DNA from: a virus
Lineage: Duplodnaviria > Heunggongvirae > Uroviricota > Caudoviricetes
Length of the DNA stretch: 35,721 bases
Reading direction: 5' to 3' (one strand)
IMG/VR virus record: IMGVR_UViG_2713896776_000006
The notes under the pieces: model-generated
Databases searched by the model: none
The model's input: only the letters and a program-made list of their open reading frames with translations
Told to the model about the DNA's origin: nothing
Program-made: the position numbers and the translations under genes
In this document: piece by piece, positions 3,895 through 34,359 of the stretch
Position numbering within the stretch: the first letter of the stretch is position 1
Layout of the letters: each line of letters begins with the position of its first letter

Positions 3895-4166
3895 GTATTC
3901 GTATTGAAATTGGCGAACGTTATGTCGTTACCAGTGACAGCTTTCAGTTTATTCTCCACGAGAAAAAGAGAGCTGAAAGCGGTAAAAACGCCGGTCAGGA
4001 ATGGCTGGCGGTGGTTGGTTATTACCCGAAATTAAGCCAGCTTGTTTCCGGCCTGATGCATCACGATATTCTGACCGGAAGCGCAAAGTCTTTTGCTGAT
4101 TTAAACGCGCAGGTTGAGCAACTCAGCAAGCGTTGTTCAGAGGCTTTTGGCTCATATGGCCGTTAA
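3891..4166 (+). CDS. Early hypothetical protein (P2 orf83-like)
   Basis: 91-aa ORF, GGAGAA SD; overlaps start of A as in P2. Confidence 0.5.
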   Translation: MSIRIEIGERYVVTSDSFQFILHEKKRAESGKNAGQEWLAVVGYYPKLSQLVSGLMHHDILTGSAKSFADLNAQVEQLSKRCSEAFGSYGR

Positions 4167-6432
4167 AGCCTCCGGGCGTTTTGTCCCTCCGTCAGCATTT
4201 GCCGCAGGCACCGGTGAGACGTTTACCGGTGCTTATGCATGGAACGCGCCACGCGAGGCCGTCGGGCGCGAAAGACCCCTTACACGTGACGAGATGCGTC
4301 AGGTGCAAGGTGTTTTATCCACGATTAATCGCCTGCCTTACTTTTTGCGCTCGCTGTTTACTTCACGCTATGACTACATCCGGCGCAATAAAAGCCCGGT
4401 GCACGGGTTTTATTTCCTCACATCCACTTTTCAGCGCCGTTTATGGCCGCGTATTGAGCGCGTGAATCAGCGCCATGAAATGAACACCGACGCGTCGTTG
4501 CTGTTTCTGGCAGAGCGTGACCATTATGCGCGTCTGCCGGGGATGAATGACAAGGAGCTGAAAAAGTTTGCCGCCCGTATCTCATCGCAGCTTTTCATGA
4601 TGTATGAGGAACTCTGCGATGCATGGGTTGATGCACATGGCGAGAAAGAATCGCTGTTTACAGATGAGGCGCAGGCGCATCTGTATGGTCATGTTGCTGG
4701 CGCTGCACGTGCTTTCAATATTTCCCCTCTCTACTGGAAAAAATACCGTAAAGGACAGATGACCACGAGGCAGGCATATTCTGCCATTGCCCGTCTGTTT
4801 AACGATGAGTGGTGGACTCATCAGCTTAAAGGCCAGCGTATGCGCTGGCATGAGGCGTTACTGATTGCTGTCGGGGAGGTCAATAAAGACCGTTCTCCTT
4901 ATGCCAGTAAACATGCCATTCGTGATGTGCGTGCACGCCGCCAGGCAAATCTGGAATTTCTTAAATCGTGTGACCTCGAAAACAGGGAAACCGGCGAGCG
5001 CATCGACCTTATCAGTAAGGTGATGGGCAGTATTTCTAATCCTGAAATTCGCCGGATGGAGCTGATGAACACCATCGCCGGTATTGAGCGTTACGCCGCC
5101 GCAGAGGGTGATGTGGGGATGTTTATCACTCTGACCGCGCCGTCAAAGTATCACCCGACACGTCAGGTCGGAAAAGGCGAAAGTAAAACCGTCCAGCTAA
5201 ATCACGGCTGGAATGATGAGGCATTTAATCCAAAGGATGCGCAGCGTTATCTCTGCCGCATCTGGAGCCTGATGCGCACGGCATTCAAGGATAATGATTT
5301 ACAGGTCTACGGTTTGCGAGTCGTCGAGCCACACCACGACGGAACGCCGCACTGGCATATGATGCTTTTTTGTAATCCACGCCAGCGTAACCAGATTATC
5401 GAAATCATGCGTCGCTATGCGCTCAAAGAGGATGGTGACGAAAGAGGAGCCGCGCGAAACCGTTTTCAGGCAAAACACCTTAACCGGGGCGGTGCTGCGG
5501 GATATATCGCGAAATACATCTCAAAAAACATCGATGGCTATGCACTGGATGGTCAGCTCGATAATGATACCGGCAGGCCGCTGAAAGACACTGCCGCGGC
5601 TGTTACCGCATGGGCGTCAACGTGGCGCATTCCGCAATTTAAAACGGTTGGCCTGCCGACAATGGGGGCTTACCGTGAACTACGCAAATTGCCTCGCGGC
5701 GTCAGCATTGCTGATGAGTTTGACGAGCGCGTCGAGGCTGCACGCGCCGCTGCAGACAGTGGTGATTTTGCGTTGTATATCAGCGCGCAGGGCGGGGCAA
5801 ATGTCCCGCGCGATTGCCAGACTGTCAGGGTCGCCCGTAGCCCGTCGGATGACGTTAACGAGTACGAGGAAGAAGTCGAGAGAGTGGTCGGCATTTACGC
5901 GCCGCATCTCGGCGCGCGTCATATTCATATCACCAGAACGACGGACTGGCGCATTGTTCCGAAAGTGCCGGTCGTTGAGCCTTTGACTTTAAAAAGCGGC
6001 ATCGCCGCGCCTCGGAGTCCTGTCAATAACTGTGGAAAGCTCACCGGTGGTGATACTTCGTTACCGGCTCCCACACCTTCTGAACACGCCGCAGCAGTGC
6101 TTAATCTGGTTGATGACGGTGTTATCGAATGGAATGACACGGAGGTCGTGAGGGCGCTCAGGGGGGCATTAAAACACGACCTGAGAACACCAAATCGTCA
6201 GCAAAGAAACGGAAGCCCGTTAAAACTACATGAAATTGCACCATCGGCCAGACTGACCCGGTCGGAAAGAATGCAAATTACCCGTATCCGCGTTGACCTT
6301 GCTCAGAACGGTATCAGGCCGCAGCGATGGGAGCTTGAGGCGCTGGCGCGTGGCGCGACCGTAAATTATTACGGGAAATATTTCAATTATCAGGTCGCTG
6401 ATGAGTGGCCTGGATTTTTGTTACCCATTTGA
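4156..6432 (+). CDS. A: Replication initiation protein A (rolling-circle nickase)
   Basis: About 758 aa from the first in-frame ATG (a TTG at 4147 would give 761 aa, the P2 gpA length); position after orf83; large basic replication protein typical of P2 gpA. Start uncertain by about 3 codons. Confidence 0.88.
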   Translation: MAVKASGRFVPPSAFAAGTGETFTGAYAWNAPREAVGRERPLTRDEMRQVQGVLSTINRLPYFLRSLFTSRYDYIRRNKSPVHGFYFLTSTFQRRLWPRIERVNQRHEMNTDASLLFLAERDHYARLPGMNDKELKKFAARISSQLFMMYEELCDAWVDAHGEKESLFTDEAQAHLYGHVAGAARAFNISPLYWKKYRKGQMTTRQAYSAIARLFNDEWWTHQLKGQRMRWHEALLIAVGEVNKDRSPYASKHAIRDVRARRQANLEFLKSCDLENRETGERIDLISKVMGSISNPEIRRMELMNTIAGIERYAAAEGDVGMFITLTAPSKYHPTRQVGKGESKTVQLNHGWNDEAFNPKDAQRYLCRIWSLMRTAFKDNDLQVYGLRVVEPHHDGTPHWHMMLFCNPRQRNQIIEIMRRYALKEDGDERGAARNRFQAKHLNRGGAAGYIAKYISKNIDGYALDGQLDNDTGRPLKDTAAAVTAWASTWRIPQFKTVGLPTMGAYRELRKLPRGVSIADEFDERVEAARAAADSGDFALYISAQGGANVPRDCQTVRVARSPSDDVNEYEEEVERVVGIYAPHLGARHIHITRTTDWRIVPKVPVVEPLTLKSGIAAPRSPVNNCGKLTGGDTSLPAPTPSEHAAAVLNLVDDGVIEWNDTEVVRALRGALKHDLRTPNRQQRNGSPLKLHEIAPSARLTRSERMQITRIRVDLAQNGIRPQRWELEALARGATVNYYGKYFNYQVADEWPGFLLPI

Positions 6433-6690
6433 GTAAAAATGCAGCGTGATTTTATATGCCTTTGAATGGATTATGCGAAGCGCCTCTAAGGCAGATGAGG
6501 AGCAATAGCATGCTGAAGTAGAAGGCTAAATTGTATTGAATCGCTAGCATGTAATTTAAGGCAGCTATTTGATTCGAGTCATAAAAGAGCATCTATTTCG
6601 GCTAATAAAACCATTGCGAGTGACCTTTTGTCGAAGCATAATTCATCTCGAGCGAAGTCTTGCTAGTCTTTCATCGGAATGATGACAGGC

Positions 6691-6723
6691 GCAAAAAAAC
6701 CACCCTGGCAGGTGGTTTTTTTG
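6691..6723. terminator. Bidirectional rho-independent terminator (accacc-ctggca-ggtggt between A-run and T-run)
   Basis: Seen directly: A7 - 6-bp GC-rich stem - 6-nt loop - stem - T7. Lies downstream of A (plus strand) and of the small minus-strand ORF. Confidence 0.6.
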
Positions 6724-6734
6724 TTTGAAGCATA

Positions 6735-6848
6735 CTAAAGAATAATACTTACATGGATATTACTGACGTTTACTGACAAACCACTTGGACTACCATATGG
6801 ATAGCCAAAGAGGGCCAGAACGAGAATGCAGTAATAGCACTTCTTCAT
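6735..6848 (-). CDS. Candidate small protein (37 aa, MKKCYYCILVLALFGYPYGSPSGLSVNVSNIHVSIIL)
   Basis: Not in the ORF track (<60 aa). Found by manual reverse-complement translation: AGGAGG SD 4 nt upstream of ATG, and the ORF ends about 12 nt before the terminator hairpin. Compact promoter-SD-ORF-terminator layout. Function unknown. Confidence 0.25.
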   Translation of the reverse strand: MKKCYYCILVLALFGYPYGSPSGLSVNVSNIHVSIIL

Positions 6849-7420
6849 ATCTCCTCCTGTAAGCAGAGGGCAATTTCCGCCGATATATGCGCTTCTGAGG
6901 CGGAGTTACTATTTAGCGAAGTCTTGCCCTGAAATAATGCTCTGTTTAAACGCAAAGTGATCTGGCATATCACCGAACAGAGAGCCTGAACAACACAACA
7001 TATAGTATGTCGTTGTTTCTGGTTGCATTTTATGTTGTGTAATACTGGTTTTGCATCAAGGATGTTTGAGCTTTTTTTGATATAGCTCAAAGTAAAAAGC
7101 AGGGACTACGGATGATAAGGTATTGAAAGCAATGTAAATTTTTTAAAGTTATTGGTGGCTAAAAAATGCACAGTTTCAATATGGCGGACTTAAATAAGCA
7201 ATTAAAAAAGTCATAAATATCACTAAAATCATGGTGTTACGTTTTTTTTGTGGGAGCTGCGGTGACGCTTAAGTTGATTTGTCATTAAATAAGCCGTGCA
7301 TGCAACAAGTGAATGTTTTTGCATGCGTCGGGGATGCCCGTTCCAGCTGCTCGCGGTCAGAGCTGGTGCGGATCCATAGTATCTATGCAACTGCATTAAA
7401 ACCGCCACATGAAGCGGGCG

Positions 7421-7439
7421 GGCGAGGCGGGGAAAGCAC
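7421..7439. other. Putative cos site (19-nt cohesive-end sequence ggcgaggcggggaaagcac)
   Basis: GC-rich 19-mer matching my recollection of the P2 cohesive end; located between A and Q where P2 cos lies in the prophage map. Recollection only, not verified. Confidence 0.45.
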
Positions 7440-7499
7440 TGCGCGTTAAAGATTTTATTATGGCTATTGACTTGCTTTGTGTTCAGAAATGAACTAACT

Positions 7500-9974
7500 A
7501 TGAAATCCCACTTAATTTATATGATAGGTTTTATAATGGATATTAATTTTACAGAGTTGATTATTAGCAAGCAAACTATTGATTATGCTAAACTAGTTAC
7601 AAATATTTGTTCTGGAAAGGCAATGTTGTTTTTGGGGGCGGGTTTCTCTAAAGAAGCTACGAATATTAATGATACTAATCCTTCTTCTTCAATAGAGCTA
7701 TCTCATATATTATGTGGTCTTTGTTCAATACCTAAAAATGATAATCTACGCTTTTCTTCTGATTATTACTTAGCAAAAAACTCGTCATTAAAATTAATAG
7801 AACTATTAATTTATAATTATTCTATAAAAACAACATCGGAGAACCAAAATATAATCGCATCGCTACCATGGAAACGTTGTTACACAACTAATTATGACCG
7901 ATGTTTTGAGATCGCAGCTGAATCATCCGGTAATAAATTCGAAACTATAGATCTTGAGCATAAAACAAAGGAATATTATAAGCGCAAGAATTTATGTATT
8001 CATCTTAATGGTTCAATTAATAATATTTCTACTGAAACGCTTGATGATTCATTCAAACTTTCTGATTCATCTTATTCAAGCCCTGACTCTTTTACTGACT
8101 CTGAATGGTTCTATTATTTTAAAAGAGATTTAGATAGGTGTGGCGCGATCGTTTTTATCGGTTATTCAATGTATGATATTGAAATAAAAAAAATCCTTTC
8201 TACCTTACCTCAATTAAAAGAGAAAACATTTTTTGTAACTAGTCTCAATCCTGATATCGAATTAGAATTTACTCTAGAAAAATTCGGTACCGTTTTGCCT
8301 ATAGGTTTGAGTGGTTTTGCCAATAGAATAAGAGATAATATTACTTCAGTATCAGAAGAGCAGGAGTATAAGCTACAGTCACTTTTTCTTCATGATATAA
8401 CCAATGAATCAAGTTCTATTAGAGATGAAGAGGTTGAAAAAATGTTGATGTATGGTGATTTGGATGATCATCATATTGATAATTTTATACTTGGTAATAC
8501 TAAGGTACCGTTTTTAGTAAAAAGAAGTGAAATTGATAAAGCTGTTTCATTAATTGAACAATCAAAAAATGTAATTATTTATTCGGCGCTTGGAAACGGA
8601 AAAACCATCTTATTGAAAGAGCTAAGGAGTGTTTTATCCGTCGGTGGTTATGATGTTTATACAGTGGCCGATATAGATGGTGATTTTATATCAGATATTG
8701 ACTATATAGCACAATCATCCATGAAAAATATCATATTACTTGATGGGTATGAGAAGAATCTTGAATTAATGGAACATGTGGGCAGAGCTGCTTACGAAAA
8801 TGTACTAATACTTGCTACTGCCCGTGTTGCAGATCATGAATATCACAGAGATGATTTGGAGCGCATAAAATTCAAATATTCTGAAATAAATATTGATATG
8901 TTAGATGAGGTAGAGTTAAAAGATTTTTCAAAAATAATAGATAACTTAGGTCTTTGGGGAGATAATGCAGGGCTTAGTGTAGAGCAAAAGGTAAGATATT
9001 TAGCTAATGAGAATAACAGTCAATTCTCAATTGCATTGCTTACTCTTTTGGAGTCGCCGCAAATAAAAAATAAGATAAGTGATTTAATTACCGGGATTAA
9101 AAAGAGTAAGAGTCATGAAAACACAATTATTTCAATTTGTCTTTGTCAAATACTTGGCATTGAAACGAATCGAGGGATTATATCTGATCTTGCAGGCAAT
9201 GATTTGATTTATGATCCGGATTTTACTAATAACAGTGCGTTTAAGGCAATATTTAATTTCCATGGCGGTAGGATCATTAACGGGTCTAGTTTATTTTGCA
9301 TACATCTAATAAAAAATAATTTCACTCCTACTGTTATTATAGAGCGAATGCTTACTATTGCATCAAGGTTTAATCAATTAAACTCTAAGGATTATGAACA
9401 GGATAGAATATTTAAAGCTATGCTCAGGTTTTCTTTTGTTGAGCAGCTGCTTCCTGAAAGTATGAAAATATCAACGCTACAACGATATTATGAAAAGTTA
9501 AAAATTGAAGTTCCATGGCTAAATTCAAACCCACACTTCTGGTTGCAATACGCAATGTGTTTTATTGCTTACAAAAATTACCCAAAAGCACAACAGTATA
9601 TTGACCAGGCATATGCGTTAGCTGAAAAGCGAGCAAAATATCACACGAACAATATTGATACCCAGCAAGCAAAAATATATTTGCTTTCAAGCGAAAAGAT
9701 ACCAGATGGTAATATTGTATTCTCTAATTTCGAAAAGGCAAACAACCTTCTTAGTAATTTGGATGTGGATATTTACTCTCTGAGGCAGTTTTCGAGATAT
9801 AAAGATTTTCATTTGTCAAATTACAATAAGCTATCGAAGAGTAATAAAGTTAAATATATGGAAGCATGTAAACAGTCTTTAAATAAAATATCTGAATATG
9901 AAGGAGATGGCGGCGTAAGTCAATCATATGTTGCTAAAGTGATTGAAATATTAAAGCATATTACAAAGGTATAA
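7500..9974 (+). CDS. Candidate anti-phage defence protein: N-terminal SIR2-like (SIR2_2-type) NADase domain fused to a P-loop NTPase and a C-terminal helical domain
   Basis: Long uninterrupted ORF (824 aa from the first ATG; track ORF starts at 7467 with TTG). SIR2-family motifs in canonical order: LFLGAGFS, CYTTNYD, IHLNGS, VFIGYSMYD. Downstream a Walker A-like SALGNGKT, Walker B-like NIILLDGYE, then ILATAR. Strongly AT-rich relative to flanking phage genes. Located at the P2 tin/old variable locus between cos and Q. Confidence 0.7.
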   Translation: MKSHLIYMIGFIMDINFTELIISKQTIDYAKLVTNICSGKAMLFLGAGFSKEATNINDTNPSSSIELSHILCGLCSIPKNDNLRFSSDYYLAKNSSLKLIELLIYNYSIKTTSENQNIIASLPWKRCYTTNYDRCFEIAAESSGNKFETIDLEHKTKEYYKRKNLCIHLNGSINNISTETLDDSFKLSDSSYSSPDSFTDSEWFYYFKRDLDRCGAIVFIGYSMYDIEIKKILSTLPQLKEKTFFVTSLNPDIELEFTLEKFGTVLPIGLSGFANRIRDNITSVSEEQEYKLQSLFLHDITNESSSIRDEEVEKMLMYGDLDDHHIDNFILGNTKVPFLVKRSEIDKAVSLIEQSKNVIIYSALGNGKTILLKELRSVLSVGGYDVYTVADIDGDFISDIDYIAQSSMKNIILLDGYEKNLELMEHVGRAAYENVLILATARVADHEYHRDDLERIKFKYSEINIDMLDEVELKDFSKIIDNLGLWGDNAGLSVEQKVRYLANENNSQFSIALLTLLESPQIKNKISDLITGIKKSKSHENTIISICLCQILGIETNRGIISDLAGNDLIYDPDFTNNSAFKAIFNFHGGRIINGSSLFCIHLIKNNFTPTVIIERMLTIASRFNQLNSKDYEQDRIFKAMLRFSFVEQLLPESMKISTLQRYYEKLKIEVPWLNSNPHFWLQYAMCFIAYKNYPKAQQYIDQAYALAEKRAKYHTNNIDTQQAKIYLLSSEKIPDGNIVFSNFEKANNLLSNLDVDIYSLRQFSRYKDFHLSNYNKLSKSNKVKYMEACKQSLNKISEYEGDGGVSQSYVAKVIEILKHITKV

Positions 9975-9975
9975 T

Positions 9976-10003
9976 AAAAAAGGCCGCTCTGCGGCCTTTT
10001 TTA
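9976..10003. terminator. Bidirectional rho-independent terminator between convergent defence gene and Q
   Basis: aaaaa-aggccgc-tct-gcggcct-tttttt seen directly after the defence ORF stop and after the Q stop on the opposite strand. Confidence 0.65.
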
Positions 10004-10007
10004 TAGG

Positions 10008-11042
10008 CTAATAATCCTCATCGCTAAGTTTGTAATTTTTAAAACATATTACTGATTCTCCTACCCAATGATTGACCTCACTGAGCCGGTTTTGGAGTGG
10101 AGTAAGTTCATTTCGCACGAATACTTTTGCCACTTTCTCAATATCACCCAGTGACCCGACATTCTCCGGCTTGCCGCCCATCAACTGAAAGGGGACGCGG
10201 TGTGCGTCCAGCAGGTCTGCGGCGCTGGCTTTTTTGATATTAAAAAAATCGTCCTTCGTTGCCACTTCACTGAGCGGGATAATTTTGATGCCGTCGGCTT
10301 TCCCCTGTGGGGCATAGAGAAACAGATTTTTAAAGTTGTTGCGGCCTTTCGACTTGACCATGTTTTCGCGAAGCATTTCGATATCGTTGCGATCCTGCAC
10401 GGCATCGGTGACGTACATGATGTATCCGGCATGAGCGCCATTTTCGTAATACTTTCGGCGGAACAGCGTGGCCGACTCATTCAGCCAGGCAGAATTAAGG
10501 GCGCTGAGATATTCCGGCAGGCCGTACAGCTCCTGATTAATATCCGGCTCCAGCAGGTGAAACACGGAGCCGGGCGTGAAGGCTGTCGGCTCGTTGAAGG
10601 ACGGCACCCACCAGTAAACATCCTCTTCCACACCACGGCGGGTATATTTTGCCGGTGAGGTTTCCAGTCTGATGACCTTACCGGTGGTGCTGTAACGCTT
10701 TTCCAGAAACGCATTACCGAACACCAGAAAATCCAGTACAAAGCGGCTGAAATCCTGCTGAGAAAGCCACGGATGCGGGATAAATGTTGAGGCCAGAATA
10801 TTACGTTTGACGTAAATCGGTGAGCTGTGATGCACGGCAGCACGCAGGCTTTTTGCCAGACCGGTAAAGCTGACCGGTGGCTCATACCATCTGCCGTTAC
10901 TGATGCACTCGACGTAATCCAGAATGTCACGGCGGTCGAGTACCGGCACCGGCTCACCAAAGGTGAATGCCTCCATTTTCGGGGCGCTGGCGGTCATTGT
11001 TTTTGCCGCAGGTCGCGGTGTTTTCCCTTTTTTCTTGCTCAT
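10008..11042 (-). CDS. Q: Portal protein
   Basis: 344-aa ORF, first gene of leftward late operon, stop/start overlap with P; same length as P2 gpQ. Confidence 0.93.
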   Translation of the reverse strand: MSKKKGKTPRPAAKTMTASAPKMEAFTFGEPVPVLDRRDILDYVECISNGRWYEPPVSFTGLAKSLRAAVHHSSPIYVKRNILASTFIPHPWLSQQDFSRFVLDFLVFGNAFLEKRYSTTGKVIRLETSPAKYTRRGVEEDVYWWVPSFNEPTAFTPGSVFHLLEPDINQELYGLPEYLSALNSAWLNESATLFRRKYYENGAHAGYIMYVTDAVQDRNDIEMLRENMVKSKGRNNFKNLFLYAPQGKADGIKIIPLSEVATKDDFFNIKKASAADLLDAHRVPFQLMGGKPENVGSLGDIEKVAKVFVRNELTPLQNRLSEVNHWVGESVICFKNYKLSDEDY

Positions 11043-12814
11043 CAGTAAAACTCCAGAATGGTGGATGTCAGTGGGGTGCTGATACCGGCGGTGAGTGGCT
11101 CATTTAACAGGGCGTGCATGGTCGCCCAGGCGAGGTCGGCGTGGCTGGCTTCCTCGCTGCGGCTGGCCTCATAGGTGGCGCTGCGTCCGCTGCTGGTCAT
11201 GGTCTTGCGGATAGCCATAAACGAGCTGGTGATGTCGGTGGCGCTGACGTCATATTCCAGACAGCCACGGCGGATAACGTCTTTTGCCTTGAGCACCATT
11301 GCGGTTTTCATTTCCGGCGTGTAGCGGATATCGCGCGCGGCGGGATAGAACGAGCGCACGAGCTGGAACACGCCGACACCGAGGCCGGTGGCATCAATAC
11401 CGATGTATTCGACGTTATATTTTTCGGTGAGTTTGCGGATGGATTCAGCCTGAGTGGCAAAGTCCATGCCTTTCCACTGGTGACGCTCAAGTATTCTGAA
11501 TTTGCCACCGGCCACCACCGGCGGTGCCAGCACCACGCATCCGGCGCTGTCGCCACGGTGTGACGGGTCGTAACCAATCCATACCGGGCGGGAACCGAAC
11601 GGATTGGCGGCAAAGGGTGCATAGTCTTCCCATTCTTCCAGCGTGTCGACCATGCAGCGTTGCAACTCCTCGAACGGGAACACCGACGCCTTGTCGTCAA
11701 CAAATTCACACATGAACAGGTTTTTAAAATCGTCGGCGCTGTTTTCGCGTTTGAGCTGTTCAATGTCGAACAGCGTGCAGCCACCTTTCAGGGCGTCCTC
11801 AATGGTGACAATCTGCCGCCACTGGCCGTCTGCACAGAGAAGCCCACCGGCAAGGGCGTTATGACTGACGTCGATTTCCACGCGTTCGGCGGCGCTGGCG
11901 CGTCCCCGGTTGAACAGTTCACCCGACCAGAACGGGTAGGCGTCGTGCGCCAGCGTGGACGGGGTGGAGAAATAGGTCGAGCGCAGGTGACTCTGTGAGG
12001 CCATACCTGATGCCACCTTACGCAGTACCTGAAAATTCGGGATCCAGAAAATCTCATCGACGTACAGGTCGCCGTTATGGCTCTGCGCGGTGTTGGAGTT
12101 GGTGCCGAGAAAAATCAGTTTTGCGCCGTTATTGCCCAGGACAATCGGGTCACCGGTCAGGTCAACGTCAACCAGCCGGGCAAAGGCGATGATGTATTCG
12201 CGGAACACATACGCCTGCGTTTTACTGGCCGACAGAAAAATCTGGTTATGACCGGTTTTCAGGGCGCGCAGCAGCGCCTCGCGGGAAAAATAAAACGTCG
12301 CGCCAATCTGGCGGGATTTCAGGATATCGCGGATGCGGTGCTCAAGCCCGGCGCGATACCAGTGCAACTGATAGTCGAAAGACTGCTCAAAGAAAATCTG
12401 CTCCAGCTTTTCGATGGCCTCGTCACTGAAAAAATTCTTTTTCGGTTTGCGACGCCCGCCTTTGTTGCGGTTAGCGACGTTCGGATTAAGGTCTGCCTCG
12501 TTGCCGGTCTGACTGTAGCGGTTGACCCGCGCCAGTCGTTCAATCTGGCGTCCCAGCAGGTCAATTTCCTTGAAGTCACCGCCGGTTTTCTGCGGTTTGA
12601 TGATGAGCTGGGTCAGCCGCGCTTCCAGACTCATTTCGACACGGCTGATGGGGGCAACGCTGTCCCAGCCGTCGCGCTGTTTCCAGCTCTGCACCGTCGG
12701 GCGTTTCATCTGCAACATGGCGGCAATCTGCGGCACGGAAAACCCCTGCCAGTACAGCAGCGCCGCCTGACGACGCGGATCGTGTAAAAGAGTGGTGTCT
12801 GTGGTGATGGTCAT
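11042..12814 (-). CDS. P: Terminase large subunit (ATPase)
   Basis: 590 aa from the internal ATG preceded by GGCGAGG (track ORF extends 10 codons further); same length as P2 gpP. Confidence 0.93.
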   Translation of the reverse strand: MTITTDTTLLHDPRRQAALLYWQGFSVPQIAAMLQMKRPTVQSWKQRDGWDSVAPISRVEMSLEARLTQLIIKPQKTGGDFKEIDLLGRQIERLARVNRYSQTGNEADLNPNVANRNKGGRRKPKKNFFSDEAIEKLEQIFFEQSFDYQLHWYRAGLEHRIRDILKSRQIGATFYFSREALLRALKTGHNQIFLSASKTQAYVFREYIIAFARLVDVDLTGDPIVLGNNGAKLIFLGTNSNTAQSHNGDLYVDEIFWIPNFQVLRKVASGMASQSHLRSTYFSTPSTLAHDAYPFWSGELFNRGRASAAERVEIDVSHNALAGGLLCADGQWRQIVTIEDALKGGCTLFDIEQLKRENSADDFKNLFMCEFVDDKASVFPFEELQRCMVDTLEEWEDYAPFAANPFGSRPVWIGYDPSHRGDSAGCVVLAPPVVAGGKFRILERHQWKGMDFATQAESIRKLTEKYNVEYIGIDATGLGVGVFQLVRSFYPAARDIRYTPEMKTAMVLKAKDVIRRGCLEYDVSATDITSSFMAIRKTMTSSGRSATYEASRSEEASHADLAWATMHALLNEPLTAGISTPLTSTILEFY

Positions 12815-12844
12815 GAATACCTCGCCGTGATGAATACACGGCAA

Positions 12845-23978: not shown

Positions 23979-24506
23979 ATGCAACATTTAAAAAATATTA
24001 CTGCGGGTAATCCAAAAACTGTTGCCCAATATCAACTGACAAAAAATTTTGATGTTATCTGGTTATGGTCCGAAGAGGGAAAAAACTGGTATGAGGAAGT
24101 AAGTAATTTTCAGGAGGACACGATAAAGATTGTTTACGACGAGAATAATATAATTGTCGGCATCACCCGAGATGCTTCAACGCTTAACCCTGAAGGTTTT
24201 AGCGTTGTTGAGGTTCCTGATATTACTGCCAACCGACGTGCTGATGACTCAGGTAAATGGATGTTTAAGGATGGTGCCGTGATTAAGCGGATTTATACGG
24301 CAGACGAACAGCAGCAACTGGCAGAATCACAAAAGGCAACTTTGCTTTCCGAAGCCGAATCCGTGATTTTGCCGCTGGAGCGCGCTGTCAGGCTGAATAT
24401 GGCAACAGATGAGGAGCGTAGCCGACTGGATGCATGGGAGCGTTACAGCGTTCTGGTCAGTCGTGTGGATCCTGCAAATCCTGAATGGCCGGAAATGCCG
24501 CAATAA
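23979..24506 (+). CDS. G: Tail fibre assembly chaperone
   Basis: 175-aa ORF immediately after H; same length as P2 gpG. Confidence 0.9.
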
Positions 24507-24752
24507 GTTGTATGAGCTCTGGTGTGAGCTTACATATCTATGGCACAGAGTAAAGACTAATCTGACAGTCCGCTCTGTGCCAGAAGCGGACCTTCCAACA
24601 AGCTATATAGGAGCTAAAAAATCCTCATTGATCCAGGCTTTGAGCTTGTAAATTACCATTCCTAAAAGTTACATAATAAGTTCTATAATGTGTAGCATGG
24701 ATGATTAATATAGTTGTTTTAAGTTAAGTCCCTACAGGATATGGAGTTTTTT

Positions 24753-25205
24753 ATGTTACAACAACTGGCCTGTGAGTTTTTTATTGAGTTTTCACGATAT
24801 GAATATTGCCTTAAGGCATGTGGGATTTTAATCAATGGAGGCCATTTAAAAGCTGACTGGAATGGATATTCCGATCAGGTGCGTGACGTTATCGAAAACC
24901 CGTCTACCCCTAAACTTAATGAAGCGATTCATTACTTCGAAGAGCATCCCCCTAAAAAACAGATTTACGGTGAAAAAGGGATCATGTGGTCGGAAAAACT
25001 ACCGAGTTCCCGGCACCGGGCTGAACTAATTTTACTGCTGGTCTGTCGAGTAAGAAACAATCTCTTTCACGGCGGAAAATTCAATGGTAATTGGTTTGAA
25101 CCGGAACGCAGTGAGCAGTTAATCCGGCACGCCCTCACCATCCTACGGGCCTGTGCGGAGAAACACGCCGGAGTGAAAGATGCCTATGAGAACAAACACT
25201 TCTGA
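24753..25205 (+). CDS. Cargo hypothetical protein with HEPN-like Rx4-6H motif (RVRNNLFHGG)
   Basis: 150 aa from the ATG preceded by GGAG with 6-nt spacer (track ORF starts 4 codons earlier). AT-rich. Only a single short motif supports the HEPN idea. Confidence 0.5.
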   Translation: MLQQLACEFFIEFSRYEYCLKACGILINGGHLKADWNGYSDQVRDVIENPSTPKLNEAIHYFEEHPPKKQIYGEKGIMWSEKLPSSRHRAELILLLVCRVRNNLFHGGKFNGNWFEPERSEQLIRHALTILRACAEKHAGVKDAYENKHF

Positions 25206-25311
25206 GACGGGTCACTGCTACAACCCAGCCCATAACGGCAACTCTGACAGAATCATTAAAGGTTACTAGTACATTAAAAGAAATCGCTAAAGCAGTCGGA
25301 TTTATGTCTAT

Positions 25312-25357
25312 GGGGAGCAGGTCAAGACGAAGCTAGCCCTGCTCCCCGTGATTTTTA
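25312..25357. terminator. Bidirectional terminator-like hairpin between convergent cargo genes
   Basis: 10-bp stem ggggagcagg/cctgctcccc with 16-nt loop, followed by gtgattttta. Confidence 0.5.
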
Positions 25358-25383
25358 TATACCCACCACGGAGGCATTAGGCC

Positions 25384-26109
25384 CTATTGCCTTTTTTTCA
25401 GGTCATCAAGAATGCTCTGCTTTTCGGCAACCAACATTTTGTACACATCATCATCACTTTTAAGATTAAATTTGAAATGCGATCGTCCCACAGATATGCC
25501 GGATACGCCTTCAATCCACATATCCTTGGCTATTTTTTCATCTGAGTCATCTAGGGCATTTTCAGAAATCTTATCAAGGGATGAGAGGATATCCCCATGC
25601 AACTGTAACAATTTTTTATATGTGATTGATGGCGAATTTTCCTTCCTCCGAGAGATCAAGCTTAGATCATTAATCTGGGCGTTAACGCGATCAATAATAC
25701 CAAAAACTCCTAAGCGAGCCTCAACTGACTTGCGCTCAGATTTATGTTTTGCGCCTGTTTGAAATAACAGCTCGGAGTTAATATACGAACCTAGATCATG
25801 TGCATCTTTCACCATGGTTCTAACACCCTCACTAAAGTGTGGGTATCCGATAACTAGCCCCCCCAGTAGTGGGATGATCTTACCGTAAGCGGTGATTTTC
25901 GCGATGATTGAGCCTTCAGAGAACTCAACTGTTATCTCTACCTCACTTCCAATAAAAAAAGGTATTCGGCTCTTCGCAAAGGCAGTTATTTGCTTCTCAA
26001 TCTCATTGATTCTTAGTTTCTTATCTTGAGGGGTCGCATTTTTTAACCACTCAGGATTAACATGAACATACGATTGAGAAATGATATTCCCTGATACATA
26101 GTTTGCCAT
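25384..26109 (-). CDS. Cargo hypothetical protein (241 aa), unknown function
   Basis: ORF with GGAG SD 5 nt upstream of ATG; AT-rich; no motif I can assign. Confidence 0.6.
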   Translation of the reverse strand: MANYVSGNIISQSYVHVNPEWLKNATPQDKKLRINEIEKQITAFAKSRIPFFIGSEVEITVEFSEGSIIAKITAYGKIIPLLGGLVIGYPHFSEGVRTMVKDAHDLGSYINSELLFQTGAKHKSERKSVEARLGVFGIIDRVNAQINDLSLISRRKENSPSITYKKLLQLHGDILSSLDKISENALDDSDEKIAKDMWIEGVSGISVGRSHFKFNLKSDDDVYKMLVAEKQSILDDLKKRQ

Positions 26110-26292
26110 TCTTACTCCATTAACAAGTTACTTTAGCCACCTAGTAATACCCCTAATTTCAGGAGATATCGATATCATTCGCAACGATTGACCTGTTCCC
26201 AGTTGATTGATACACGACATTGTGAGCAAGATCTATGGCAACTCAAGTACGAACGTCTGCTGATCGCTCAGAGCGGACGGCCTTCGTGGAAG

Positions 26293-27102
26293 TTAGTCTT
26301 GTTGTGGTGGCTCTTTCCAGCGCCATTGCAAGACATTCTCATCGCTGAGAATAAACAGTCCTGACCAAATTGCCGTCCAAAACTGGACATTCAGACACCA
26401 TGGGCGTGTCATAAACCAGCGTAACGGTTTTGCTTCAAACAGATGAATACCTTTTCGCGATGGTGAATATAACGGGGGGCGTCCCACTAACGGCAGACAA
26501 AAGCCCCATTTCCAATATTCAGCAATACGCCTTCGGGCAAATTCAATTGCATTACAGTTCCAGATGATACCCCAACGCCGTTTCCATGTATCATTGAGAC
26601 ACCAGTTTTGCATTAGCGAATATTTGGGCGAATTGTCAATAGATATACTTTCACCAGTCATTAAATTTATCGTGCAATATTTTAACTGGTACTGTTCAAC
26701 CGTAAATGCGAATCCATCATCTAGAATAAGTACATCAAGTGTAGGAATATTTGAAAGCGTTAATATTATCGGTGAGTTATTTACATCATGAATGCATAGT
26801 GTTTCTTGGTAGCGTAAGCCACTGCCAATGGCTTCAAAAACAAGTTCAACTTGTTGCAGTGGTTCCTCTTTGCTTCTGAAAGCAATACGTGAACAACGAG
26901 GTTCTTTATCTGTCAACTGAGCAAATCGTAGACTGTACTCCAAATAATTCCCTAAGGAATGCCAGCTCGCCCCTAGCCTGTGTCTCACTGCCCAGCGCTC
27001 ATGTGAGAGTTGATAAGTTTTTATCAGCATTATCTGGGTAAGAGTAGACCAGCATTTCTTCACTACTGTAACAATTGCACCAAAAGGAACAGGAAGTGAC
27101 AT
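26293..27102 (-). CDS. Cargo hypothetical protein (269 aa, Trp-rich), unknown function
   Basis: ORF upstream of and co-oriented with the 241-aa gene (183-bp gap); weak GGGG SD; AT-rich; start uncertain (alternative internal Met). Confidence 0.5.
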   Translation of the reverse strand: MSLPVPFGAIVTVVKKCWSTLTQIMLIKTYQLSHERWAVRHRLGASWHSLGNYLEYSLRFAQLTDKEPRCSRIAFRSKEEPLQQVELVFEAIGSGLRYQETLCIHDVNNSPIILTLSNIPTLDVLILDDGFAFTVEQYQLKYCTINLMTGESISIDNSPKYSLMQNWCLNDTWKRRWGIIWNCNAIEFARRRIAEYWKWGFCLPLVGRPPLYSPSRKGIHLFEAKPLRWFMTRPWCLNVQFWTAIWSGLFILSDENVLQWRWKEPPQQD

Positions 27103-27361
27103 TACTAAACCCCTACAAATATCAGATAATTAGGTTTTATATCATTTCAGTCAGTGTAATCAAATGATAATCAGGATTGGGGCTAATCTTGAACGCCACT
27201 AAAGATCGGCAACAATGGGGATCCAATGTTTCGTTAGTGATTTTTCGCATTAGCAGATACATGCTTACTTCCGCTCCTCGCTCAAAGCAGACTGTCAGAT
27301 TTGATAGCGTTTGGGCTATGTAAATTGTCAGTTGGAAAATGAGTGAGTGCAAATCAGGACA

Positions 27362-27388
27362 GGCGGGCGAATTGCCCGCCTTTTCTTT
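27362..27388 (+). terminator. Terminator-like hairpin (ggcgggc-gaatt-gcccgcc-tttt) upstream of FI
   Basis: 7-bp GC stem with 5-nt loop and T-rich tail seen directly; would insulate the FI late promoter from cargo-island transcription. Confidence 0.4.
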
Positions 27389-27484
27389 ATCTGTTGTTTC
27401 ATCCACTGACCAGCCAGGTCAAATAGCGTCTCATGCTCTGCACAACAGAAAATAGTTGCACCCATTAACCACGGAGTTAAACGG

Positions 27485-28675
27485 ATGAGTGACTATCATC
27501 ACGGCGTGCAGGTGCTGGAGATTAACGACGGCACCCGCGTCATTTCCACCGTATCCACCGCCATTGTCGGCATGGTCTGCACGGCCAGCGATGCGGATGC
27601 GGAAACCTTCCCCCTCAATAAACCGGTGCTGATTACCAATGTGCAGAGCGCAATTGCAAAGGCCGGTAAAAAAGGCACGCTGGCGGCATCGTTGCAGGCC
27701 ATCGCTGACCAGTCAAAACCGGTCACCGTTGTCGTGCGCGTGGAAGACGGCACCGGCGACGACGAGGAAACGAAACTCGCGCAGACCGTTTCCAATATCA
27801 TCGGCACCACCGACGAAAACGGTCAGTACACCGGACTGAAAGCCCTGCTGGCGGCGGAGTCGGTAACCGGTGTTAAACCTCGCATTCTCGGCGTGCCGGG
27901 ACTGGACACCAAAGAGGTGGCGGTTGCACTGGCATCAGTCTGTCAGAAGCTGCGCGCTTTCGGGTATATCAGCGCATGGGGCTGTAAAACCATTTCCGAG
28001 GTGAAAGCTTACCGCCAGAATTTCAGCCAGCGTGAGCTGATGGTCATCTGGCCGGATTTCCTCGCATGGGATACGTTCACCAGTACCACTGCCACCGCGT
28101 ATGCCACCGCCCGTGCGCTGGGTCTGCGTGCCAAAATCGACCAGGAGCAGGGCTGGCATAAAACGCTGTCCAACGTCGGGGTGAACGGTGTTACCGGCAT
28201 CAGCGCATCTGTATTCTGGGATTTGCAGGAGTCCGGCACCGATGCTGACCTGTTGAACGAGTCAGGCGTCACTACGATTATTCGCCGCGACGGTTTCCGA
28301 TTCTGGGGTAACCGTACCTGCTCTGATGACCCGCTGTTCCTCTTTGAAAACTACACCCGCACCGCGCAGGTGCTGGCCGACACGATGGCTGAGGCGCACA
28401 TGTGGGCGGTGGACAAGCCCATCACCGCAACGCTGATTCGCGACATCGTTGACGGCATCAATGCCAAATTCCGTGAGCTGAAAACAAACGGCTATATCGT
28501 GGATGCGACCTGCTGGTTCAGCGAAGAATCCAACGATGCGGAAACCCTCAAGGCCGGAAAACTGTATATCGACTATGACTATACCCCGGTGCCTCCTCTC
28601 GAAAACCTGACCCTGCGCCAGCGTATTACTGATAAATACCTGGCAAATCTGGTCACCTCGGTTAACAGCAATTAA
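27485..28675 (+). CDS. FI: Contractile tail sheath protein
   Basis: 396-aa ORF; same length and order as P2 gpFI. Confidence 0.95.
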   Translation: MSDYHHGVQVLEINDGTRVISTVSTAIVGMVCTASDADAETFPLNKPVLITNVQSAIAKAGKKGTLAASLQAIADQSKPVTVVVRVEDGTGDDEETKLAQTVSNIIGTTDENGQYTGLKALLAAESVTGVKPRILGVPGLDTKEVAVALASVCQKLRAFGYISAWGCKTISEVKAYRQNFSQRELMVIWPDFLAWDTFTSTTATAYATARALGLRAKIDQEQGWHKTLSNVGVNGVTGISASVFWDLQESGTDADLLNESGVTTIIRRDGFRFWGNRTCSDDPLFLFENYTRTAQVLADTMAEAHMWAVDKPITATLIRDIVDGINAKFRELKTNGYIVDATCWFSEESNDAETLKAGKLYIDYDYTPVPPLENLTLRQRITDKYLANLVTSVNSN

Positions 28676-33787: not shown

Positions 33788-33868
33788 TGTTTTTATTTTA
33801 TCTATTTGTTTTATAAGGATAAATTAACTAAAATGGCACCATCAACAAAACCGGAAGAGGTGCTCGCG

Positions 33869-34087
33869 ATGTTTCATTGTCCTTTATGCCAGCATGCCGC
33901 ACATGCGCGTACAAGCCGCTATATCACTGACACGACAAAAGAGCGTTATCACCAGTGTCAGAACGTGAATTGCAGTGCCACGTTCATCACTTATGAGTCG
34001 GTACAGCGATACATCGTGAAGCCGGGAGAAGTCCACGCCGTAAGGCCGCACCCGTTGCCATCAGGGCAGCAAATTATGTGGATGTAA
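33869..34087 (+). CDS. ogr: Ogr zinc-finger late transcription activator
   Basis: 72 aa from MFHCPLCQHAAHARTSRYITDTTKERYHQCQNVNCSATF (CxxC...CxxxxC zinc finger), GAGG SD; last phage gene before attR as in P2. Confidence 0.9.
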   Translation: MFHCPLCQHAAHARTSRYITDTTKERYHQCQNVNCSATFITYESVQRYIVKPGEVHAVRPHPLPSGQQIMWM

Positions 34088-34188: not shown

Positions 34189-34215
34189 AAAAAATAAGCC
34201 CGTGTAAGGGAGATT
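34189..34215. repeat. attR core: 27-bp direct repeat identical to 478..504
   Basis: Exact identity with the left copy; overlaps the 3' terminator of the sRNA gene on the minus strand. Confidence 0.8.
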
Positions 34216-34275
34216 ACACAGGCTAAGGAGGTGGTTCCTGGTACAGCTAGCATTTTATGGGTTATGTTTTTCAGC
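34189..34275 (-). ncRNA. cyaR: CyaR (RyeE) Hfq-dependent sRNA
   Basis: Reverse complement reads gctgaaaaacataacccataaaatgctagctgtaccaggaaccacctccttagcctgtgtaatctcccttacacgggcttatttttt, which matches my recollection of E. coli CyaR, including the terminal hairpin and U-tract. It lies between yegQ and P2-like prophage DNA as in E. coli K-12. Recollection only, not alignment-verified. Confidence 0.6.
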
Positions 34276-34359
34276 GAAACGGATGATAACCTTAATAAAT
34301 GCAGCTGTATGTGATCGGTTTCTAAGAATTTTCCATCCGGGAAAAATAATCGAAATTAA

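Follow-up and report, generated by a model that had tools for sequence, protein, structure and literature searches.

The 35,721-nt stretch of viral DNA analysed here (the window) carries one long AT-rich gene between A and Q, adjoining cos, at a position whose content varies among otherwise syntenic prophages. What this gene encodes, and whether its product belongs to a described anti-phage system, is the question raised by the locus. The first-pass annotation had read it as a SIR2/NTPase fusion and as a candidate for an undescribed architecture. The analyses presented below indicate that the gene, which a P2-like prophage carries as cargo at its gpA-gpQ hotspot near cos, very probably encodes an EfAvs5-type Avs5 protein (AVAST type 5), an NLR-like sensor of phages that consists of a single polypeptide. 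The gene, hereafter avs5, and the features that delimit it are as follows.

4114..6432, + strand: replication gene A, left flank of the hotspot (Pfam Phage_GPA, E 2.7e-124)
7421..7439, + strand: P2-type cos 19-mer, left bound of the cargo (exact match to GGCGAGGCGGGGAAAGCAC)
7536..9974, + strand: avs5 coding sequence with its probable start, 812 aa plus stop (RefSeq WP_157846090.1; homolog starts)
9974..10004, no strand assigned: bidirectional intrinsic-terminator-like hairpin common to avs5 and Q (inverted repeat, A- and T-runs)
10008..10098, - strand: 3' end of Q, last ~30 codons, part of the cargo module (GC, homology, distribution)
10008..11042, - strand: portal gene Q, right flank of the hotspot (Pfam Phage_portal; RefSeq 'phage portal protein')
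11042-12844, - strand: terminase (Pfam search of flanking genes)

Both bounds of the cargo were recovered as initially described. On the left, GGCGAGGCGGGGAAAGCAC, which we take to be the P2 cos (cohesive-end) sequence, was found at 7421-7439 with 0 mismatches and was matched in 0 of 100 shuffles. On the right, an inverted-repeat search detected ATAAAAAAGGCCGC and GCGGCCTTTTTTAT as the perfectly matching 14-nt arms of an inverted repeat, separated by a loop of 3 nt (9974-10004). This hairpin, bordered by an A-run and a T-run on opposite sides, lies between the stop of avs5 (9974) and that of Q (10008), in agreement with a bidirectional terminator common to both genes; a consensus terminator scan made no call at this site.

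The longest frame of the ORF listing covers 7467..9974 on the + strand (TTG start, 835 aa), and an in-frame ATG at 7500 gives an 824-aa product. In RefSeq, the identical gene starts at ATG 7536 and encodes the 812-aa protein WP_157846090.1, whose product name is only 'SIR2 family protein'. Because the N-terminus of 19 of 19 aligned homologs coincides with the residue matching ATG 7536, this codon is probably the true start. The open reading frame first proposed (7500..9974, ~824 aa) is intact, but its start codon is likelier to be 7536. An unbroken frame together with invariant catalytic residues ruled out a pseudogene or a frameshifted gene. As had been noticed, the coding sequence is far more AT-rich than the phage backbone, with a GC content of 0.314 versus 0.559 in the late genes and 0.533 in gene A. 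A promoter scan gave no match better than expected from shuffled sequence, and none on the + strand from cos to the start codon, where no convincing sigma-70 promoter was thus seen. When the whole window was compared to Rfam, CyaR alone reached the gathering score, and an E-value scan of 6400-7560 returned sub-threshold, chance-level matches only.

In order to place the protein, it was compared to sequences and structures of the PDB. A phmmer search retrieved chain 9JAP_A (E 3.9e-130, query 13-783 aligned to chain 41-826), which corresponds to the published filament structure of EfAvs5 from Escherichia fergusonii (Wang et al., Nat Commun 2025, PMC11897194). Identity to EfAvs5 is 34% over 766 aligned columns that include all domains (38% in SIR2, 26% in the linker, 29% in the NOD and 36% in the C-terminus). 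A profile built from 56 family members matched 9JAP with an E-value of 3.5e-251 over profile positions 11-820. The same chain was the best Foldseek match in the PDB (9jap_A, E 1.8e-54, TM 0.57), followed by 9nc9 ('AVAST5 filament'), human SAMD9 and DSR2. The second match, 9nc9, has a structural-alignment identity of ~14% and was found in neither PDB sequence search (single sequence or family profile). Human SAMD9/SAMD9L, third in fold (E 5e-12, 11% identity, TM ~0.3), are much larger proteins with other effector domains, and no homology to WP_157846090.1 was detected at the sequence level; a structural kinship of the Avs5 sensor and overall fold with SAMD9 has been reported (PMC12931631 among the sources). 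More than 120 full-length homologs (806-859 aa) are spread over Gammaproteobacteria.

The protein has a tripartite architecture, SIR2, STAND/NOD and helical C-terminus, and is homologous to EfAvs5 over its full length. Its three parts are encoded as follows.

7572..8345, + strand: SIR2 NADase effector domain, aa ~13-270 (Pfam SIR2_2, conserved NAD+ pocket)
8541..9335, + strand: STAND/NOD NTPase module with NBD, helical and winged-helix subdomains, aa ~336-600 (EfAvs5 alignment; bounds approximate)
9336..9971, + strand: C-terminal all-helical repeat domain, presumed sensor, aa ~601-812 (model, EfAvs5 alignment)

All seven motifs quoted in the first-pass annotation (LFLGAGFS, CYTTNYD, IHLNGS, VFIGYSMYD, SALGNGKT, NIILLDGYE and ILATAR) were found. 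An N-terminal SIR2 domain had been expected from profile searches, and Pfam SIR2_2 indeed matched there with an E-value of 1.2e-13 and 51.8 bits, above the curated cut-off of 24.5; its motifs map to 7635-7649 (GAGFS), 7884-7898 (TTNYD), 8001-8012 (HLNG) and 8160-8168 (GYS). The central P-loop NTPase of STAND type is equally borne out, as it aligns with the EfAvs5 NOD including Walker A (GNGKT, 8592-8606), the Walker B Asp (LLD, 8736-8744) and the sensor Arg (ATAR, 8814-8825). The Pfam nSTAND3, nSTAND5 and nSTAND6 matches of this part are sub-threshold (below the curated cut-offs), and nSTAND3 and nSTAND5 are on record for many homologs. In the AlphaFold2 model of WP_157846090.1 (pLDDT 87.6, pTM 0.79), strands and helices alternate in the NBD and are followed by helical subdomains. 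The model further supports the helical C-terminal region that had been described: residues ~600-812 are all-helical with a pLDDT mostly >90. Weak Pfam TPR_19 and TPR_14 matches fall in this domain. HFWLQYAM, NIDTQQA and FRQ are invariant motifs within it, and its conservation is on a par with that of SIR2.

The order of domains is that of EfAvs5 (SIR2, NOD, helical C-terminal sensor) and the TTR-type Arg is identical, while EfAvs5 is longer (849 aa versus 812 aa) and has extra insertions in its SIR2 small domain. At the level of single residues, the seven NAD+-pocket positions of EfAvs5 (A41, T140, N141, Y142, N180, Y202 and S233) are all identical, and so are H178, K379, D426 and R453, the last three corresponding in the alignment to K356 (GNGKT), D403 (LLD) and R430 (ATAR). 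Across 56 homologs, each of these 11 residues shows no variation or a conservation of at least 90%. In EfAvs5, defence is abolished by N141A, K379A, D426A or deletion of the C-terminus, each alone, and R537 touches an ATP phosphate, which was proposed as the reason for the absent ATPase activity (PMC11897194). The residue at the R537 position is Lys in WP_157846090.1.

Other Avs5 clades, which include PaAvs5-1, -2, -3 and EcAvs5 (PMC12931631; Gao et al. 2020 cited therein), are alike in their SIR2-STAND-repeat architecture and single-gene make-up. Four clades have been published, with an inter-clade identity of 18-21% and EfAvs5 in clade 3 (PMC12931631). From these identity levels (34% versus 18-21%), we infer that WP_157846090.1 would group with EfAvs5. 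Table S1 of the same study, a PSI-BLAST list, is without clade labels and lacks WP_157846090.1. The suggestion of an undescribed architecture has to be withdrawn: SIR2-STAND proteins of ~800-850 aa are AVAST type 5, and the protein is a full-length EfAvs5 homolog. The same length range answers the remark that the protein is shorter than Avs proteins. Both the architecture and the accession were already known, the latter from a published hotspot catalogue.

While catalytic positions are conserved, only one of the 12 mutationally defined dimer and filament contacts of EfAvs5 is identical here (K241). The others (T262, H362, K461, D164, R185, I303, E307, E404, K552, H622 and K623) differ, so that the geometry of the oligomer may differ from that of EfAvs5. 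As interfaces can drift at 34% identity, these substitutions argue neither for nor against filamentation. Within the Avs5 assignment, it is conceivable, albeit with a rather low probability, that the enterobacterial ~810-aa sub-lineage of EfAvs5-type proteins is functionally distinct, with a different conserved trigger and/or an oligomer other than a filament bundle. The grounds for this reading are that the EfAvs5 filament contacts are almost all missing, that the C-terminal domain is unusually conserved for a sensor and that the cos-Q slot recurs in E. coli and Proteus prophages (a Proteus mirabilis homolog, 49% identical, occupies the same gpA-gpQ slot in a P2-like prophage). A protein of a competing P2/P4-type element or of a jumbo phage would be an example of such a trigger; among other Avs5 clades, activity against jumbo phages and a JADA trigger have been reported (PMC12931631).

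The protein was also submitted to PADLOC v2.0.0, which returned matches of ThsA models to the SIR2 part and a weak Dsr1 match, and no Avs model. In a control, EfAvs5 itself and two other homologs likewise remained without an Avs model. The silence of PADLOC is thus a gap of the library, since the type protein is missed as well, and its reading as a sign of novelty was dropped. NCBIfam contained no family matched by WP_157846090.1, and no PHROGs family was assigned. No match was obtained when 50,697 phage records were searched by tblastn, i.e. the protein is absent from the sequenced free phages of that collection.

One may ask whether these proteins form a separate, undescribed SIR2-STAND family that shares with Avs5 the effector and the NTPase only and has another sensor and another mode of activation. 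The missing PADLOC match, the sub-threshold STAND matches, the changed dimer and filament interfaces and the modest identity to EfAvs5 would fit such a family. We nevertheless regard it as improbable, given that homology to EfAvs5 runs from end to end and that the C-terminal domain has 36% identity and the motifs HFWxQYAM, NIDTQ and YRQ in common with it. Moreover, the family profile scores EfAvs5 with the E-value given above, the two best fold matches are Avs5 structures, published Avs5 clades diverge far more from one another, and PADLOC misses EfAvs5 too.

Other SIR2-based systems were considered and rejected. ThsA, DSR1/DSR2, SIR2-HerA and KomC each have an NADase domain of SIR2_2 type that is homologous to that of WP_157846090.1, with identical catalytic Asn and His residues. 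Thoeris, in which ThsA joins SIR2 to a C-terminal SLOG domain that binds cADPR isomers and is accompanied by the TIR protein ThsB, is excluded, as the ThsA models align at 12-211 of 478 only, no SLOG domain was matched in Pfam (as the first-pass annotation had stated) and no TIR gene is adjacent. DSR1 and DSR2 consist of a SIR2 domain followed by a long helical, non-NTPase domain, in about 1000-1300 aa, and are not known to contain a P-loop STAND module. They are ruled out here by the invariant Walker A and Walker B motifs and by a Dsr1 model match of E 0.015 that is confined to the SIR2 part; DSR2 structures rank after Avs5 and SAMD9 in Foldseek. SIR2-HerA, a two-gene operon of a SIR2 protein and a HerA helicase, was discarded since a single gene lies between cos and the Q terminator, with no HerA or other partner gene.

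If the protein works as its characterized relatives do, the following sequence of events can be proposed by analogy to EfAvs5 and PaAvs5. In the uninfected cell, it would be an ATP-bound inactive monomer. During infection, a protein of the incoming phage would be recognized through the C-terminal helical domain, and the NOD and SIR2 domains would then drive oligomerization, into filaments in the case of EfAvs5, bringing SIR2 into an active dimeric state. SIR2 would hydrolyse NAD+ to ADP-ribose and nicotinamide, and the loss of NAD+ would stop phage replication, protecting the lysogen population and hence the prophage. NADase activity and a T7 trigger (gp1.7) have been published for EfAvs5 (PMC11897194), and NAD+ hydrolysis upon sensing of a phage protein for the single-gene PaAvs5 (Muralidharan et al., Mol Cell 2026, PMC12931631); in both cases, anti-phage protection with NAD+ hydrolysis triggered by infection has been shown. 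The NAD+-depleting defence function put forward initially thus remains a likely one by analogy. The term abortive infection appears too strong, because EfAvs5 was reported not to be a canonical Abi system, infected cells surviving (PMC11897194). The protein raises no mechanistic question beyond those existing for Avs5, namely the triggering phage proteins and the role of ATP.

The gpA-gpQ interval is a validated P2 hotspot of swappable anti-phage systems (Rousset et al., Cell Host Microbe 2022, PMC9122126). WP_157846090 is listed in Table S5A of that study as a one-gene 'SIR2_2' entry, 'SIR2_2 + DUF87' being a separate arrangement; this agrees with the single-gene system in a defence hotspot that was first suggested. 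Eight hotspot systems were cloned in that study; the systems that its text names as showing defensive activity do not include the gene. The value of the present assignment lies mainly in annotation, in that a RefSeq 'SIR2 family protein' can confidently be named Avs5 and the PADLOC v2.0.0 copy used misses the EfAvs5-type proteins tested, the type protein included. In addition, the locus provides a clear-cut natural case of a temperate phage that carries an NLR-like NADase beside its packaging site.

Among 5426 complete E. coli genomes, avs5 is carried by four, whereas the 1 kb upstream of the cargo occurs in 183. Three copies are intact and 99.8-100% identical in unrelated strains (pangolin, food and flour), and in one strain the gene is interrupted by ISKpn26. 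One of the genomes has an intact, 100% identical avs5 in an otherwise badly degraded prophage. This rarity and the IS disruption, together with the strong AT-richness and the lack of a clear promoter, could be taken to mean that avs5 is a decaying or silent passenger, i.e. a recently acquired gene that is H-NS-silenced or non-functional and brings no benefit. We consider this very improbable: the 812 codons are uninterrupted with all catalytic residues intact, the near-identical copies come from unrelated strains, the gene stays intact even where the surrounding prophage has decayed, and it has its own terminator. Moreover, defence cargo is usually low in GC. A housekeeping-type sirtuin, acting as an ATPase-regulated NAD+-dependent deacylase or ADP-ribosyltransferase in phage or host regulation, is hardly credible despite the RefSeq name and the catalytic His and Asn of sirtuins, as the Pfam match is to SIR2_2 and not to classical SIR2, the nearest relatives in sequence and structure are the defence NADases EfAvs5, KomC, ThsA and DSR2, and the gene sits within a validated defence hotspot.

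The edge of the avs5 module was located inside the portal gene. The 3' end of Q (10008..10098) has a GC content of 0.363 versus 0.524 in the remainder of the gene, and nucleotide homology with Q of other P2-like phages starts only at ~10099. The segment 9975-10110, which includes this 3' end, is present solely in the same four avs5-bearing E. coli genomes. These data show that the last ~30 codons of Q move together with the cargo module. Old and tin of P2 and other gpA-gpQ cargo occupy the same cos-proximal variable region and encode unrelated proteins. The avs5 cargo is placed between cos and Q, on the Q side, and comes with a terminator of its own plus the ~30 terminal codons of Q. In a P2 record (NC_070905), accessory genes are found on the A side, where they occupy the stretch from A to the right end of the linear genome. 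A module edge that falls within the terminal part of Q and a Proteus homolog in the same slot are both useful for understanding the exchange of defence cargo between P2-like phages.

The avs5 reading frame runs without interruption on the plus strand and ends at position 9974 of the window. Three candidate starts were listed for it:

7467, plus strand: TTG, giving 835 aa
7500, plus strand: ATG, giving 824 aa, the start called in the first-pass annotation
7536, plus strand: ATG, giving 812 aa

The identical gene of E. coli M172-1 and EC2001 (WP_157846090.1, RefSeq "SIR2 family protein") has a start equivalent to 7536, and the first residue in 19 of the 19 homologs of a first alignment is the one aligned with this codon. 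Because both agree, avs5 was taken as 7536-9974. Its CDS has a GC content of 31.4%, compared to 55.9% in the late-gene backbone. The surrounding features are as follows:

4114-6432: gene A, one flank of the hotspot
7421-7439: the 19-mer GGCGAGGCGGGGAAAGCAC, which we take to be the cohesive-end sequence of P2 (0 mismatches; matched in 0 of 100 shuffles)
9974-10004: perfect 14-nt inverted repeat flanked by A- and T-runs, between the stops of avs5 and the convergent Q
10008-11042, minus strand: portal gene Q, on the other flank
11042-12844, minus strand: terminase gene P, on the same flank as Q

The intact frame, its low GC content and the inverted repeat bear out the earlier description of an AT-rich ORF lying between a cos-like 19-mer and a terminator common to Q, and every protein motif quoted with that description was found.

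In Pfam searches, SIR2_2 was detected at residues 128-242 (824-aa numbering) with an E-value of 1.2e-13, above the curated cut-off, while nSTAND3, nSTAND5 and nSTAND6 around the P-loop were sub-threshold only and TPR matches toward the C-terminus were weak. A search of solved-structure sequences was decisive: 9JAP_A aligned end to end with the protein (query 13-783, chain 41-826, E 3.9e-130). This chain comes from EfAvs5, the Escherichia fergusonii AVAST type 5 protein, solved by cryo-EM as a filament (PMC11897194). The two proteins share 34% identity over 766 aligned columns (38% in SIR2, 26% in the linker, 29% in the central STAND-type NTPase module or NOD, and 36% in the C-terminal domain). 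EfAvs5 was scored by a 56-member family profile at E 3.5e-251 over profile positions 11-820 and is therefore simply one member of the same family. The AlphaFold2 model built from the 56-member alignment was confident (pLDDT 87.6, pTM 0.79), and Foldseek against the PDB ranked 9jap_A first (E 1.8e-54, TM 0.57) and 9nc9, entitled "Helical assembly of AVAST5 filament", second (E 7e-19), followed by human SAMD9 and DSR2. Similarity to SAMD9 is also reported in the Avs5 literature (PMC12931631). That the TM-score to 9JAP is only moderate and the rmsd large may be because a compact predicted monomer is being compared with an assembled filament subunit. All the defining features of Avs5 that can be tested from sequence were present. 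Since published Avs5 clades are only 18-21% identical to one another and EfAvs5 belongs to clade 3 (PMC12931631), we infer from the 34% identity that the window protein groups with EfAvs5.

Hence, the SIR2 and NTPase domains had been read correctly in the first-pass annotation, on the evidence of both the SIR2_2 match and the end-to-end alignment. Its proposal of an undescribed architecture has to be abandoned: SIR2-STAND proteins of ~800-850 aa are AVAST type 5, and both the structure and the mechanism of a homolog at 34% identity have been worked out. Three other SIR2 systems were rejected: DSR1/2 because the protein has a P-loop NOD, SIR2-HerA because that system has a partner gene and avs5 has none, and ThsA because its SLOG domain and its ThsB partner are both absent here. 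The Avs models of PADLOC-DB v2.0.0 matched neither the window protein, nor EfAvs5 (chain residues 41-826), nor two other family members; the models that did match were those for ThsA and generic SIR2 only. Because this copy fails on EfAvs5 itself, the search is powerless as a test for Avs5, and scans relying on these models would miss EfAvs5-type proteins.

Functional residues were compared after correcting a chain-to-native offset of 20 residues in EfAvs5 (verified on K379, D426, R453 and N141). The window protein has all seven NAD+-pocket residues of EfAvs5 (A41=A35, T140=T118, N141=N119, Y142=Y120, N180=N158, Y202=Y180 and S233=S211, in 812-aa numbering), as well as H178 (H156), Walker A K379 (K356), Walker B D426 (D403) and the "TTR" R453 (R430). 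Among 56 homologs, down to 34% identity, nine of these 11 residues are invariant and the other two, A35 and D403, are conserved in at least 90%. In EfAvs5, N141A, K379A, D426A or deletion of the C-terminal domain each abolishes defence (PMC11897194). Given these identical and conserved catalytic and nucleotide-binding residues, avs5 of the window is very probably functional. Of the 12 dimer and filament contact residues defined by mutagenesis in EfAvs5, K241 alone is identical. R537 of the WHD, which in EfAvs5 touches the ATP phosphate and is the proposed reason for the absent ATPase activity of that protein (PMC11897194), is replaced by lysine. The oligomer geometry and ATPase behaviour of EfAvs5 thus cannot be assumed for the window protein. 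The majority-residue frequency is 0.58 in the C-terminal domain, 0.60 in SIR2 and 0.51 in the NBD. What is new is modest, namely an ortholog with a diverged oligomer interface and a well-conserved C-terminal domain.

Architecture, homology, conserved catalytic and nucleotide-binding residues and hotspot location are directly established; the mechanistic steps are drawn from EfAvs5 (PMC11897194) and PaAvs5 (PMC12931631). The resting protein would be an ATP-bound monomer whose C-terminal helical domain senses a phage protein; NOD and SIR2 contacts would drive higher-order assembly, and the SIR2 domain would then hydrolyse NAD+ and halt phage development. By analogy with the 34%-identical homolog, the function first suggested, an NTPase-gated NADase, is probably right. 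"Abortive infection" is too strong a term and should be softened, since EfAvs5 reportedly leaves infected cells alive and does not behave as a canonical Abi system (PMC11897194). The trigger of EfAvs5 is T7 gp1.7 (PMC11897194) and that of three Pseudomonas Avs5 clades is the jumbo-phage protein JADA (PMC12931631).

The 3' end of Q (10008-10098, minus strand, the last ~30 codons) has a GC content of 0.36 versus 0.52 in the remaining gene. By megablast, nucleotide matches to the Q gene of other P2-like phages begin only at ~10099, and 9975-10110, which includes these codons, was found only in the four avs5-carrying E. coli genomes. Together, these results indicate that the module extends into Q; a Q C-terminus and a terminator of its own apparently travel with it, and the recombination boundary would then lie within an essential gene.

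The window is P2-like prophage throughout, between yegS and yegQ/cyaR. The CyaR/RyeE sRNA (34192-34277, minus strand; Rfam RF00112, 100.7 bits) lies between yegQ and the ORF at the prophage end (33806-34087; ogr by position, with an ogrK annotation in the syntenic EC2001 locus), so that the prophage occupies the yegS/cyaR-yegQ locus. Of 5426 complete E. coli genomes, four carry avs5 DNA, in each case on the chromosome. The M172-1 copy belongs to an intact P2-like prophage arranged as in the window. The EC2001 prophage (L001, 6182-14796) is heavily degraded, with cox, A, terminase and capsid pseudogenes, but it still carries an intact, 100% identical avs5, a pattern that fits retention of the defence gene while the prophage decays. 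In NMBU-W12E19 (L002, 2580-6253), an ISKpn26 (IS5-like) insertion splits the gene, which is annotated as fragments.

More than 120 full-length homologs (806-859 aa) were found across Gammaproteobacteria, including Citrobacter, Pantoea, Serratia, Cronobacter, Vibrio, Photobacterium, Aeromonas, Proteus, Pseudomonas and others. In Proteus mirabilis, a homolog with 49% identity (loci L005 and L006, 7001-9451) holds the gpA-portal position of a Proteus P2-like prophage, as avs5 does in the window, and is present in 71 blocks of the collection searched, so the arrangement is not limited to Escherichia. This prophage adjoins a gene matching tRNA-synt_2 and tRNA_anti-codon (class II aminoacyl-tRNA synthetase). 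The Citrobacter homolog (65%) adjoins a P4-type integrase. Rousset et al. 2022 (PMC9122126) defined the stretch from gpA to gpQ in P2-like prophages of E. coli as a defence hotspot. WP_157846090 appears on two contigs in their Table S5A, classed as a one-gene "SIR2_2" arrangement, so that both avs5 and its position had been catalogued before. The hotspot systems that the accessible text names as showing defensive activity do not include WP_157846090.

In the ~1 kb between the gene A stop and cos (6433-7420), where the GC content is 0.405, no long ORF was convincing. The stretch is conserved, with 80-100% identity, in 183 of the 5426 complete E. coli genomes, and in the records listed the matches overlap nothing annotated. 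Conservation extends to a P2 record and to a Salmonella phage. Rfam gave sub-threshold matches only. An unannotated 37-codon ORF, MKKCYYCILVLALFGYPYGSPSGLSVNVSNIHVSIIL (6735-6848, minus strand), is preceded at canonical spacing by an AGGAGG Shine-Dalgarno sequence and followed by a strong hairpin, AAAAAAACCACCCTGGCAGGTGGTTTTTTT (~6693-6722). It had no Pfam match and looks like a gene for a small hydrophobic or signal-peptide-like peptide.

A second AT-rich island (~24550-27450, ~24.5-27.4 kb; GC 0.41-0.44), at the Z/fun position of the P2 map, lies between a tail-fibre assembly gene (23979-24506) and an ORF at 27485-28675 (putative sheath gene FI by position). It holds three ORFs of no assigned function:

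24741-25205, plus strand: 154 aa, phrog_19013, unknown function
25384-26109, minus strand: 241 aa, phrog_31894, unknown function
26293-27102, minus strand: 269 aa, no match in Pfam, PADLOC or PHROGs

The 154-aa product matched no HEPN profile and contains RNNLFH, a HEPN-domain-like Rx4H motif. The complete three-ORF arrangement occurs in only 5 of the 5426 E. coli genomes.
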